This document shows, one piece after another, positions 1,540-54,200 of a stretch of 64,000 nt of DNA. A program made the translations under genes and the position numbers. The DNA is from Candidatus Xenobia bacterium (GTDB lineage: Bacteria; Vulcanimicrobiota; Xenobia; Xenobiales; QWHO01): NCBI GenBank assembly GCA_045863235.1, contig BTUM01000001.1, positions 1 to 64,000 of the forward strand, in the 5' to 3' direction. Numbering within the stretch: position 1 is the first letter of the stretch; every line of letters starts with the position of its first letter. The notes under the pieces are model-generated. The model saw only the letters and a list, made by a program, of their open reading frames with translations, had not been told where the DNA came from and did not search any database.

Positions 1540-1760
1540 GATTTCCTTTCAACTTTTGGGGGTAACTATGTGAATATCATTCAACATCCCTGGGGAAGGT
1601 CCGACGTGAGCTCTGAGTATATGGGCCCCATGTTCATGAACTTGAAAAAGATCCCATGCTCGTCCCCAGGACGAACCAGTACCAAACACGCTTGAAATCA
1701 AGCGTGCCGAGTTTTTCCCCAGGTACCCCAGGTACTATGATGACGGTTAATTAGATCGAT
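1540..1760. promoter_or_regulatory. Replication origin oriC (dnaA-dnaN intergenic) with degenerate DnaA boxes and DnaA-trios
   Basis: AT-richer than flanks; DnaA-box-like 9-mers at 1557-1565(-), 1569-1577(-), 1591-1599(-), 1660-1668(+), 1713-1721(+), 1722-1730(+), then TAC-TAT-GAT-GAC at 1733-1744 and GTTAATTAGAT. Confidence 0.8.
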
Positions 1761-1781
1761 CAAGGAGGTTCTTCCACTGCC

Positions 1782-10094: not shown

Positions 10095-10180
10095 ATATCC
10101 ACAAGACTTGTGTGAATAAGTGGAAAGTATGGCTGAGTTAAAACACAAAATGTGGGGGAAAGTGGGGGAGAGTGGTGGGG
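10095..10180. promoter_or_regulatory. DnaA-box pair plus three 10-bp-period GTGG repeats between convergent genes
   Basis: ATATCCACA 10095-10103, TGTGAATAA 10111-10119; tGTGGgggaa/aGTGGgggag/aGTGGtgggg at 10151-10180. Confidence 0.55.
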
Positions 10181-51116: not shown

Positions 51117-53396
51117 TTGCCCGTCGTTCCCCCGCTGGGCACCGAGCGCTACCTCAACTATCACGAGTTAGCCGAATACATGCGCAGCGTTGAGGCGGCC
51201 GCTCCGCACCTGGTCCGGCTCTATTCGATCGGGACCTCCCCGGAGGGCCGGGCCTTGCTCCTGGCCGAGGTCACCAATCGCGGGTCCGGTGAGGGCCCCG
51301 AGAAGCCCGCCATCTGGCTGGATGGCAACTTGAACGCATCCGAGCTGGTTGGCTCGATGGCTTGCCTGGAAGTTCTGTACCAGCTGGCTGCAGGCCACGG
51401 ACGGGACGAGTTTGTGACCCACCTGCTGGACACTCGGACATTTTACATCGCCCCCCGCCTGGCGGTGGACGGGGCCGAGTACTGCTTGAACACCCAGGAT
51501 GTCGTGCGCTCTGGCATTCGCCTCGATCCGTTTGAGGAGGATCGACCCGGCCTGACCCCGGCTGACATCAACTCGGATGGGCGCATCCTGCAGATGCGGG
51601 TGGAAGACCCTCTGGGGGAGTGGCGTCCGTCACGGCGCGATCCCCGGCTGCTCGTTCCGCGCGGGCCGGGCGACCGTCAGGGCCCCTTCTATCGAGTCTT
51701 CCGCGAGGGTTACTTCGATCTGGAGCATCTGCGAGTCGGTCCCCGTCGTCAGGGCGTCGAGTTCGATCGCAACTTCCCGCACGAGTTCGGGCCCGGGGCC
51801 GGGGCCGGGCCCTACCCCCTTTCCGAGCCGGAGACCCGTTGCGTGGCAGAATTCGTCCGCCATCACCCCAATTTGTGTGTGGCGCTCTCGTGTCATACGG
51901 GCGGAGGTCTGGTGCAGCACCCGCAGACCGATCACATGGCCGAGCGCGATCGTGAGCTGTATGACGCCATGGGCCGGCAGGTCAGTGAGTTGACCGGTTT
52001 CCCTGTGCAGGCTGCTCCTCCCGGCCAGGGTGGGCGCATGGACCAGTGGCTCTATCATGATCGTGGCATTCTGGCCTTTCGCAGCCGTCTGTGGTCGATT
52101 GCCCGGGCCGCGGGCCTGGAGTCCACTCAGCCCTCCCGCACCGAGGTGGACAATTACACCCTGCTGCGTTGGCTGGATCGCGAGCTTCCAGGGCAGGGTT
52201 TCACCCCCTGGACCGCCTGGGAGCACCCCCAACTCGGGCGCGTCGAAGTCGGGGGCTGGCACCTGCTCACCACCTGGGTGAATCCTCCTCCCGGCCTGTA
52301 CCTGCGCGAGGAGATTCAAAAGCACGTTCGGGTGGCTATGCTACTGGCTTCGGCTCTGCCTCGTCTGGGAGCCAGTCGCCTGCGCGAGGAGACGGTAGGG
52401 TGGTCGGACCGACGCAAGGTTCCACGAGGTTCTGGCTCTCAGCCCGAGCCGGCTACGCCGGGCGAGTCCCCCGTCCCGTTGCGCAAAGTTACGCTCGAAC
52501 TGGAGAATCAGGGTTATCTGTCCACCTCTGTCACCCAGCGGATGGCCGAGATCGGTCAGCGCTGCCCTGTTCACGTTGTGCTCGAGCTGCCCGAGGGAGC
52601 CGAGGTGATGCTCGGTCGGGTGCGCCACGAGCTCGATGGGCTCAGCGGAACCGGTTCGGTCCATCACCAGTCCAATGTGGACGTGGTCTGGTTCTCGGGG
52701 GGCGAGGAGCGCCCCCGCGAGCTCCTGGAATGGCTCATTCGCGGGACTGGCGACGTGCGCGTGGTGGCTCGCTGCGAGCGCGCGGGACAGATCAAGTTGC
52801 TGAGCCGGATGGCCAGCGTCGAGCCGCCCGCGATGCCGGTGCCTCCCCCTGCGCCTCCGGTTCGGCCCCCGGCTCCACCAACTCGCGCTCCTCGACCGGC
52901 CATTCCAGAGGTGCCAGTGCCCGGCTTCGGCCCGGCACCCGCGGCTGTGCCAGCGGTGGCTCGATTTGGCGAAAATCCTCCCTTGCAGCCGTCCGCCCCG
53001 GCGCCGGCGGCAGTTGCCCCTCCGACTCCCCCTCCTGCTCGGCCGGCCCCGCCGCCGGTTGCGGAGCCTGTAGCGCCCGCCAGTTCAGGTCGAGTCCTGG
53101 GAACCCCCCCTTCGAAGGCAGGCTCGGCACCACGTCCCATGCCGTCGAACGAGCTGCAGACTCCAGCGACTTCGCAAGATAGTGGAGGTTTTGAGCTACA
53201 ACCTCTTTCGGTGACCCGTGAGTCGCCTTCTCGGCCTCCCCTGGGCTCGCGTCCGCCCGCAACCTCGGGTCAACGGCCAGCCGAGCCCCCATTGAGCTCG
53301 CAACCTCCGGCTCCGGAGGCTCCCGAAGCACCTCCGGCCGCTTCCAAGATCCCGACGCCTCTCTTGTTGCGCCGTTTGCGCGAGAAGAACAAGTAA
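51117..53396 (+). CDS. M14 family carboxypeptidase-like protein with Pro-rich tail (possibly inactive)
   Basis: SIGTSPEGR, KPAIWLDGN..ASE, DRNFP, PLSEPETR, HPQLGRVEVGG. Confidence 0.85.
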   Translation: MPVVPPLGTERYLNYHELAEYMRSVEAAAPHLVRLYSIGTSPEGRALLLAEVTNRGSGEGPEKPAIWLDGNLNASELVGSMACLEVLYQLAAGHGRDEFVTHLLDTRTFYIAPRLAVDGAEYCLNTQDVVRSGIRLDPFEEDRPGLTPADINSDGRILQMRVEDPLGEWRPSRRDPRLLVPRGPGDRQGPFYRVFREGYFDLEHLRVGPRRQGVEFDRNFPHEFGPGAGAGPYPLSEPETRCVAEFVRHHPNLCVALSCHTGGGLVQHPQTDHMAERDRELYDAMGRQVSELTGFPVQAAPPGQGGRMDQWLYHDRGILAFRSRLWSIARAAGLESTQPSRTEVDNYTLLRWLDRELPGQGFTPWTAWEHPQLGRVEVGGWHLLTTWVNPPPGLYLREEIQKHVRVAMLLASALPRLGASRLREETVGWSDRRKVPRGSGSQPEPATPGESPVPLRKVTLELENQGYLSTSVTQRMAEIGQRCPVHVVLELPEGAEVMLGRVRHELDGLSGTGSVHHQSNVDVVWFSGGEERPRELLEWLIRGTGDVRVVARCERAGQIKLLSRMASVEPPAMPVPPPAPPVRPPAPPTRAPRPAIPEVPVPGFGPAPAAVPAVARFGENPPLQPSAPAPAAVAPPTPPPARPAPPPVAEPVAPASSGRVLGTPPSKAGSAPRPMPSNELQTPATSQDSGGFELQPLSVTRESPSRPPLGSRPPATSGQRPAEPPLSSQPPAPEAPEAPPAASKIPTPLLLRRLREKNK

Positions 53397-53518
53397 AAAA
53401 AGAACGCCCCCGGGGTAGGAGGCGGATCAAGGAGGAACCAGTTCAAACGATTCGCCCGGCTTACTTGGGAAAGCTTCGGAAGGGGACCGAGCGAAGAGTG
53501 CAACCTGCTTGAACTGGT
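53395..53518 (-). ncRNA. Candidate small regulatory RNA (~120 nt)
   Basis: Own promoter; long 5' hairpin whose G-U wobbles work only on the minus strand; single-stranded CCUCCUUGAUC linker; intrinsic terminator CGCCTCC-tacccc-GGGGGCG-TTCTTTTTTT. Confidence 0.7.
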
Positions 53519-53521
53519 AAC

Positions 53522-53551
53522 AGTCTAACACCTTCTTCGTAACTTTGTCAA
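53522..53551 (-). promoter_or_regulatory. sigma70 promoter of the candidate sRNA
   Basis: TTGACA (53551-53546)-N18-TAGACT (53527-53522), TG extended -10. Confidence 0.75.
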
Positions 53552-53563
53552 CCCTCGATGTAG

Positions 53564-53596
53564 TTATTCACACAAGAATTGTGGGAATGTGGATAA
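53564..53596. promoter_or_regulatory. DnaA box pair
   Basis: TTATTCACA 53564-53572(+) and TGTGGATAA 53588-53596 (perfect TTATCCACA on the minus strand). Confidence 0.7.
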
Positions 53597-53639
53597 AGTT
53601 TGTGGTGGAAAGAGGGATCGTGTGTTCGTTTTGTAGAAC

Positions 53640-54200
53640 ATGATCCCAGTGCTGAAGCGGATTACGGCAGAGAGACAGTTCGAGCTTTTTCCCGGAGCCA
53701 TGCCATACGTTTCGCAGGGAGATGCGGCTCGCGCACTTGGTCAGGATGATGCAGGCAAAGACATCACCCCTCGCATCATTCAATATTGGGAGAGCCAGGG
53801 TCTCCTTCATCCAGAGCTCCCCGTGGAGGGTCGTAGCCGACGCTATACGCAGCAAGACCTGGTGGAGCTCAAGTTTATCAAAACGCTGGTAGTGGATCAG
53901 GGTTACACGGTGCCTTCGCTAAAGGCCAAGCTGGCCAGTTTGGAGGCGCCCTACTACTACGACCCGGCCGATTGTTTCTGGGACCTACCGTCCCAGAGCT
54001 GGAAGAGTCGCAGCGACCTGGCGGTGGAGCGTCTTTCGCAAGTCCGCGAGCAATTGGAGAGTCGCACCATCCAGGCCCTGGAGCGGCTCCTACCAGGGGA
54101 CTTGAAGAGAGCTGTTCGCGCCCTGCTCGACCTGGTACGCGATGCTCTGGAAGGGAAGGCGCTGGCTCCCGCCCGTCGTGCTCCTCGTCGCAAGGGTTAG
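53640..54200 (+). CDS. MerR-family HTH transcriptional regulator
   Basis: ITPRIIQYWESQGLLHP..RRYTQQDL..LKFIK. Confidence 0.85.
   Translation: MIPVLKRITAERQFELFPGAMPYVSQGDAARALGQDDAGKDITPRIIQYWESQGLLHPELPVEGRSRRYTQQDLVELKFIKTLVVDQGYTVPSLKAKLASLEAPYYYDPADCFWDLPSQSWKSRSDLAVERLSQVREQLESRTIQALERLLPGDLKRAVRALLDLVRDALEGKALAPARRAPRRKG

Follow-up and report, generated by a model that had tools for sequence, protein, structure and literature searches.

An apparently undescribed small RNA family with an invariant anti-Shine-Dalgarno seed and a conserved DnaA-type box pair in Candidatus Xenobia

It has been recognized that C-rich seeds directed against the Shine-Dalgarno (SD) sequence, borne on otherwise variable stems, allow bacterial small RNAs (sRNAs) to act on multiple targets (PMC10746234; PMC6486639). 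DnaA has been reviewed as a transcription factor, and sRNAs are unmentioned in the accessible part of that review (PMC8203912). As far as such sources go, trans-acting sRNAs under DnaA control are scarcely described, and the published DnaA-controlled RNA that we found, ArrA, is a cis-antisense RNA. In this study we have analysed a 64,000-nt stretch of DNA (the window; contig BTUM01000001.1, positions given on the forward strand) from the 8.36-Mb genome of a Candidatus Xenobia bacterium of the Vulcanimicrobiota, in which an initial annotation made from the letters alone had proposed an sRNA beside DnaA boxes that tunes translation of dnaN, the gene of the beta sliding clamp. The analysis supports a non-coding RNA gene with an exposed anti-SD seed and conserved boxes, but not its specificity for dnaN. 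We regard the element as a real and apparently undescribed sRNA family, in which the seed is well conserved and a DnaA-type operator is conserved as well.

The promoter, hairpin, terminator, linker and DnaA boxes attributed to this locus are all present in the sequence (Table 1). The promoter is the sole promoter-like site within 53000-54000, where shuffled sequence gives a mean of 0.3. The minus-strand fold of a 126-nt stretch has a z-score of -3.80, none of 200 shuffles being as good, compared with -1.31 for the plus strand of the same stretch, and the U-tract, the promoter and the G-U-dependent fold all lie on the minus strand. The initial annotation was right about a minus-strand promoter, but it set the start at 53518, and 53515 is more likely: sequences of the genus are conserved from CAGUUC onwards and differ in the first two bases, and with this start GGUUCCUCC falls outside the outer stem. 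The seed, GUUCCUCC, has a mean unpaired probability of 0.79 in this genome and is more exposed than the remainder of the RNA in most of the folds. No start codon follows, on its 3' side, the GGAGG that the plus strand carries at the locus, and the sequences of the genus differ by one- and two-base indels that would break a reading frame, which argues against coding. Its own promoter, an intrinsic terminator, no conserved open reading frame and a conserved exposed seed together give the locus the features by which trans-acting base-pairing sRNAs are recognized.

Conservation of the locus extends across the order. DNA similarity alone finds the RNA in only four genomes of the same genus; the other homologous loci were reached through the neighbouring MerR-like gene, which was found in 36 of 39 further genomes from the order (Vulcanimicrobiota, Ca. 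Xenobia). After exclusion of a paralogue and of a genome from outside the class, and counting this genome, 37 loci were available, and all 37 show a divergent TTGAC...TAnnnT promoter with a variable spacer, a variable hairpin, an invariant GTTCCTCC that includes the seed, and a terminator. The scaffold hairpins are unrelated in sequence between genera and are not alignable by eye, and the layout and the seed persist beside different downstream neighbours. Among 17 metagenome loci, upstream DNA was present in 15, every one of which carries the seed (seven as new sequences), while G006, a 96% complete genome in which the MerR-like gene was not found, keeps the promoter, the hairpins and the seed. 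Two out-of-class genomes have the MerR-like gene, the box pair, the promoter and a short RNA that ends in a terminator; one of these RNAs has GCCUCCUU. Covariation, which the initial annotation had proposed as a check, is found in relatives: two-sided changes occur in 3 of 39 consensus pairs among five sequences of this genus and covariation in 10 of 39 pairs among eight sequences of genus g2, and the terminator stem covaries in a genus other than this one. The sRNA family spans three families of a lineage that has barely been studied, gut genomes of 2.2-2.9 Mb among them, so a basic role is probable. Two further motifs were seen in these RNAs, each a possible second seed: GACUCAC in the terminator loop of the sRNAs of family f3 (L047, L048, L050, L057-L060 and L065), and an internal GAGUCCUC that genera g2 and g5 have in common.

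Table 1. Coordinates of the sRNA locus, its neighbours and the candidate dnaN site in the window
Feature	Position	Strand	Basis or remark
Small RNA gene, ~121 nt	53395..53515	-	Fold, promoter, terminator, genus indels and compensatory pairs, order-wide layout; start inferred
Sigma-70-type promoter TTGACA-18-TAGACT, extended -10 TG	53522..53551	-	10/12 matches; -35 TTGACA at 53551, -10 TAGACT at 53522
5' scaffold hairpin	53440..53515	-	Outer stem 53515-53507/53448-53440; inner stem 53495-53487/53459-53451
Invariant seed GUUCCUCC (complement GGAGGAAC), mostly unpaired	53431..53438	-	37/37 order loci
Genus-specific UUGAUC extending the seed 3', latter half of the 11-mer of the initial annotation	53425..53430	-	5/37 sRNAs, all this genus
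Intrinsic terminator hairpin and U-tract	53395..53424	-	Stem 53424-53405
DnaA-box cluster	53564..53596	.	TTATCCACA 53596-53588; inverted pair ATTCCCACA-N5-TGTGTGAAT 53588-53566; TTATTCACA 53564-53572
dnaN ribosome-binding region, candidate target	1758..1768	+	GATCAAGGAGG; full 11-bp match only in this genus
Divergent MerR-like winged-helix regulator, 186 amino acids	53640..54200	+	Pfam MerR_1 E=3e-13; lineage-restricted
M14 zinc carboxypeptidase gene, convergent, ending at the sRNA U-tract	51117..53396	+	Neighbour
Possible LexA-type site GAAC-N4-GATC over the MerR-like ribosome-binding site	53615..53628	.	Lead only

Searches among known RNA families gave no identity for the element. Rfam 15 has no match in the window (the best of five weak matches, all far under their gathering thresholds, has E=0.28) and none in 10 homologous loci, and no tRNA or tmRNA was found in the window. 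A known housekeeping RNA, which would have spoken against a new sRNA, was likewise not found here: we rejected 6S RNA, as the genome has a 6S-like match elsewhere, on contig C34 (under the cut-off, E=5e-5), and the signal recognition particle RNA, which is encoded on contig C13. A literature search, with most subscription papers and all supplements (possible sRNA catalogues) outside its scope, returned no description of this RNA.

Upstream of the sRNA promoter, both DnaA boxes claimed by the initial annotation are present, TTATCCACA as the only perfect copy in the genome and TTATTCACA as one of three copies, but the conserved unit is the overlapping inverted pair ATTCCCACA-N5-TGTGTGAAT. An inverted CACA-N5-TGT pair precedes the -35 in 36 of the 37 loci. 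Over 30 loci a 5-bp gap gives a mean match of 15.5/18 to the DnaA consensus, against 12.2-14.4 for the other gaps within 0-12, and the match of the pair is perfect in G013 and close to perfect in G025, G021, G038 and G014. DnaA is favoured as the binder because the pair also stands upstream of dnaA in G011 and because a degenerate core of it remains in G006, a genome that yielded no MerR-like gene. Conserved DnaA boxes at a promoter are the sequence feature expected in a DnaA regulon, and the sRNA is probably DnaA-controlled. The core of the DnaA-reactivating sequences (DARS) of Escherichia coli consists of oppositely oriented boxes I and II, 5 bp apart, plus a tandem box III (PMC6868365). The Xenobia pair resembles DARS1 and DARS2 in its two opposite boxes 5 bp apart and, in several genomes, in extra boxes alongside, and it differs by its place in a divergent promoter region; this likeness concerns the opposition of two boxes and their spacing as described, and a DARS identity of the pair is a lead. 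A second inverted pair, ATATCCACA-N5-TGTGTGAATAA, lies at 10095-10118 between convergent genes and is kept in three of four same-genus genomes. It is followed (region 10095-10180) by GTGG repeats with a 10-bp period that resemble the array upstream of the genome's own mraZ, so that this region, 8 kb from dnaN, is possibly a joint DnaA and MraZ site, the MraZ label being taken from the mraZ promoter.

Taken together, we put a probability of about 0.55 on the reading that the locus encodes an undescribed trans-acting, multi-target anti-SD sRNA of the order, set by DnaA at the box pair, with dnaN as a possible target in three genera. The sRNA would be transcribed away from the lineage-restricted MerR-like gene. 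Its variable 5' hairpin would protect the 5' end and, with the terminator, hold the seed unpaired, and the seed would then pair with ribosome-binding sites of the GGAGGAA(C/U) type on several mRNAs, blocking initiation; GGAGGAA stands upstream of 165 of the 7139 genes called here. The U-tail could load Hfq where this protein is present (it was found in four of five genomes examined), and the genus-specific bases 3' of the seed may change which targets it reaches. From the inverted pair, which lies upstream of the -35, DnaA would set, upwards or downwards, transcription of the sRNA, of the MerR-like gene or of both, and such control would tie the sRNA to the replication state. Several points weigh against this reading. 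The seed is predicted to be paired in some homologues, with an unpaired probability of 0.32-0.33 in G039 and G013, and one out-of-class RNA (G052) is without it. RNA-library contigs from four runs cover the locus only about 2 deep, are unstranded and run past both predicted ends, and they speak neither for nor against a transcript. No order-wide target appears among dnaN, dnaA, pheT, nusA, sepF, rplV and mraZ, and none is significant among 83 orthologue sets in a target screen that covered ~400 kb from three relatives. The seed is kept in the gut genome G010, in which no Hfq was found. The boxes are degenerate in some genera (13-15/18 in genus g4), inverted pairs near dnaA have no preferred gap overall, and the DnaA of E. 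coli has a preference for paired boxes with a gap of 2-3 bp (PMC11317965).

The idea of the initial annotation, a dedicated DnaA-controlled repressor of dnaN translation that closes a feedback loop on replication, appears unlikely, and the comparisons that bear on it concern both this genome and its relatives. The exact 11-nt complement between linker and dnaN is real, as GATCAAGGAGG occurs at 53425-53435 (+) and again at 1758-1768 before dnaN, but the conserved seed is GUUCCUCC and the UUGAUC half belongs to this genus only. The initial annotation had been concerned that the 11-mer might be common upstream of unrelated genes; it occurs eight times in the genome, three of the eight with an ATG 3-15 nt downstream, and two of these three stand before called genes. 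Gene starts here come from a simple caller of our own, and some of the 7139 starts are wrong. With the 11-mer dnaN ranks in the top two, with the whole linker it ranks 71/7139, with 70 genes ahead of it, and with accessibility 151/6278, with 150 ahead, the weakest genes by raw duplex energy being omitted from the latter ranking; with the invariant 9-nt core alone, 2258 of the 7139 genes do as well as or better than dnaN, which mismatches the invariant GUU of the seed. Across the 32 genomes with both parts, the longest Watson-Crick helix between each sRNA and its own dnaN reaches 8-11 bp in 13, comprising all of genera g1, g4 and g5. The full 11-bp match is confined to four of the five genomes of this genus (G004, with an identical seed, has 9 bp), and helices of 8-9 bp occur in all six g4 and both g5 genomes, where the flanking bases differ; in these three of the nine genera the cognate linker is also dnaN's best partner. 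In the other 19 genomes (g2, g3 and g6-g9), however, the helix is just 4-7 bp, so co-conservation of the seed and the dnaN ribosome-binding site, on which the earlier claim depended, fails in six of nine genera. Likewise, dnaN ranks 6/191 in G013 and 14/122 in G007 but 80/133 in G010, and its combined place of 2/83 has p=0.008, a value to be expected when 83 tests are run, with the genome from which dnaN was chosen among those combined. Once the discovery genus is left out, the cognate test yields p=0.057-0.065, and dnaN is third of 16 genes, two of the 15 others doing better. According to the accessible literature, sRNAs acting on dnaN or dnaA are already known, which lends the idea some precedent. 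From these comparisons dnaN is not the conserved order-wide target, and it may be one target in three genera. Other candidates were rejected as order-wide targets too: pheT and nusA pair strongly only in this genus, sepF in one genome only, rplV in g1 and g3 and partly in g9, dnaA has its best pairing in G030 only, of 19, and the mraZ leader falls at percentiles of 1-58%, mraZ not being found with the query used in 12 of 19 f3 genomes.

It is similarly unlikely that the sRNA is real while the box pair is not its regulator, being instead an operator to which the MerR-like protein binds, or a site that titrates or reactivates DnaA and stands there because the origin is near. MerR-family dimers bind palindromes, and the best-conserved part of the pair is the palindromic core ACA-N5-TGT. 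The second copy of the pair, between convergent genes, has no promoter match noted, and in the eight genomes that have both on one contig, dnaN is 31-106 kb away from the locus. The geometry of opposite boxes 5 bp apart is also that of the DARS core (PMC6868365). The flanks, however, match the DnaA consensus fully or nearly in the five genomes given above, and the occurrences in G011 and G006 likewise speak for DnaA; moreover, outside genus g3 the distances between pair and promoter cluster at 19-21, 40-42 and 62-64 bp, as would be expected for a phased regulator. A further alternative, which we hold to be quite unlikely, is that the seed binds a protein or another RNA rather than mRNA, in its boldest form by pairing with 16S rRNA at GGAGGAAC and acting on 30S subunits. 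It would suit a seed whose eight bases are invariant although no conserved mRNA target came to light, as well as the extra seed-like copies (GAGUCCUC, AGUUCCUC and GGUUCCC) in several genera and the exact complement of the seed in five of the six 16S sequences recovered from the class in a set of 44 genomes, the sixth pairing by G-U. Nevertheless, an 8-mer match somewhere in ~4.4 kb of rRNA has a prior chance of ~7% and was sought after the fact, the bases 3' of the seed vary whereas the 16S flank does not, the 16S region of this genome is unassembled, and multi-target anti-SD sRNAs account for the invariance. The 16S stretch is, we assume, structured in mature ribosomes, which also counts against such pairing, and the complementarity is probably due to chance. 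That there is no functional RNA at all, only the terminator of the convergent peptidase gene and promoter sequence of the MerR-like gene, is very improbable: the shallow library contigs that span both predicted ends would fit, but the strand of the U-tract, promoter and fold, and a layout and seed that persist in 37/37 loci with unrelated scaffolds and different neighbours, would not.

Some observations concern dnaN and the origin in their own right. A second dnaN-like gene, 39% identical to that of the window, lies at G000:C1:186625-187695. The dnaN leaders (window 1700-1760 and relatives) have in common a trinucleotide run of the TACTAC/GACGAC type, after which comes an AT-rich stretch; the run is presumably DnaA-trio-like, and the whole is probably the origin unwinding region. 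The end of contig C1 (396600-397105) carries an rpmH-like gene, recognized by eye, and TTTTCCACA boxes, and its start (1-101) lies just before dnaA, so that the two ends look chromosomally adjacent and the contig may be circularly permuted or mis-joined.

The divergent MerR-like protein has no named NCBIfam family over cut-off, the named MerR families (FtsR, HspR, SoxR, CueR and ZntR) scoring 20-27 bits against cut-offs of 105-168. Its nearest folds are GlnR, BmrR and CueR, none at E<=0.001, and it has few close relatives (13 representatives at E<=1e-30). A paralogue at locus L071 (G005:C21) has no box pair, promoter or seed upstream. In genus g2 (L036, L038, L043) a TGT-N11-ACA palindrome, whose spacing we take to be of the GlnR/TnrA type, spans the -35 of the sRNA, and several genera have recurrent CATG in the promoter spacer; either could be an operator bound by the MerR-like protein. 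The GAAC-N4-GATC site over the ribosome-binding site of this gene has fixed half-sites and a variable spacer in this genus, and a LexA-type site with one mismatch is present in 11 of 30 loci. GAAC-N4-GTTC, presumably the LexA site type, is intergenic in 73 of its 108 cases in this genome, a bias suggesting a LexA-type regulon; one-mismatch sites precede lexA in three of the four top lexA loci, and none was found before recA in five of five genomes.

We speculate further, as a rather unlikely but wider possibility, that an old module of the Vulcanimicrobiota is present at the locus. Here DnaA, seated head-to-head on a DARS-like pair close to the origin, would gate an sRNA that acts in trans with its invariant seed, and the state of the replication initiator would directly set translation of a gene group. 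In three genera dnaN would belong to this group by way of co-changing bases beside the seed. If true, an RNA acting in trans would join DnaA and the sliding clamp in a loop. The locus supplies a defined seed, promoter and operator, which can be examined in a heterologous host.

Among described systems, the alpha-r14/NfeR1/cuckoo RNAs are similar in their ultraconserved unpaired C-rich anti-SD motif, variable stems, multiple mRNA targets and transcription-factor wiring, but they carry CCUCCUCCC in the loops of 2-4 hairpins and belong to Alphaproteobacteria (PMC10746234; PMC4615179). The Xenobia sRNA instead has a single GUUCCUCC in the linker before the terminator, occurs in Vulcanimicrobiota and matches no Rfam family, and we therefore rejected its membership in the cuckoo/alpha-r14 group, whose motif lies in adjacent hairpins. 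The 6C sRNA of mycobacteria likewise has C-rich single-stranded seeds and many targets, the replication gene dnaB included (PMC6486639). RsaE/RoxS resembles it in such seeds and many targets; as far as their accessible descriptions go, both 6C and RsaE/RoxS differ from the Xenobia sRNA in seed and architecture, with no sequence or model match to it. We know of no DnaA-box pair for either. ArrA of Bacillus subtilis is a SigA-type RNA that is DnaA-controlled (repressed) and lowers DnaA and DnaN, but it is cis-antisense to the dnaA leader (PMC12112137), whereas the Xenobia sRNA lies at a distance of ~52 kb, would be trans-acting and has no conserved pairing with dnaN. Lambda LPR1/PreS is a trans-acting sRNA that pairs upstream of the dnaN start codon; it is phage-encoded and activates dnaN by exposing the ribosome-binding site (bioRxiv 10.1101/2024.10.31.621285), in contrast to the Xenobia sRNA, which is chromosomal and would cover the dnaN SD sequence.

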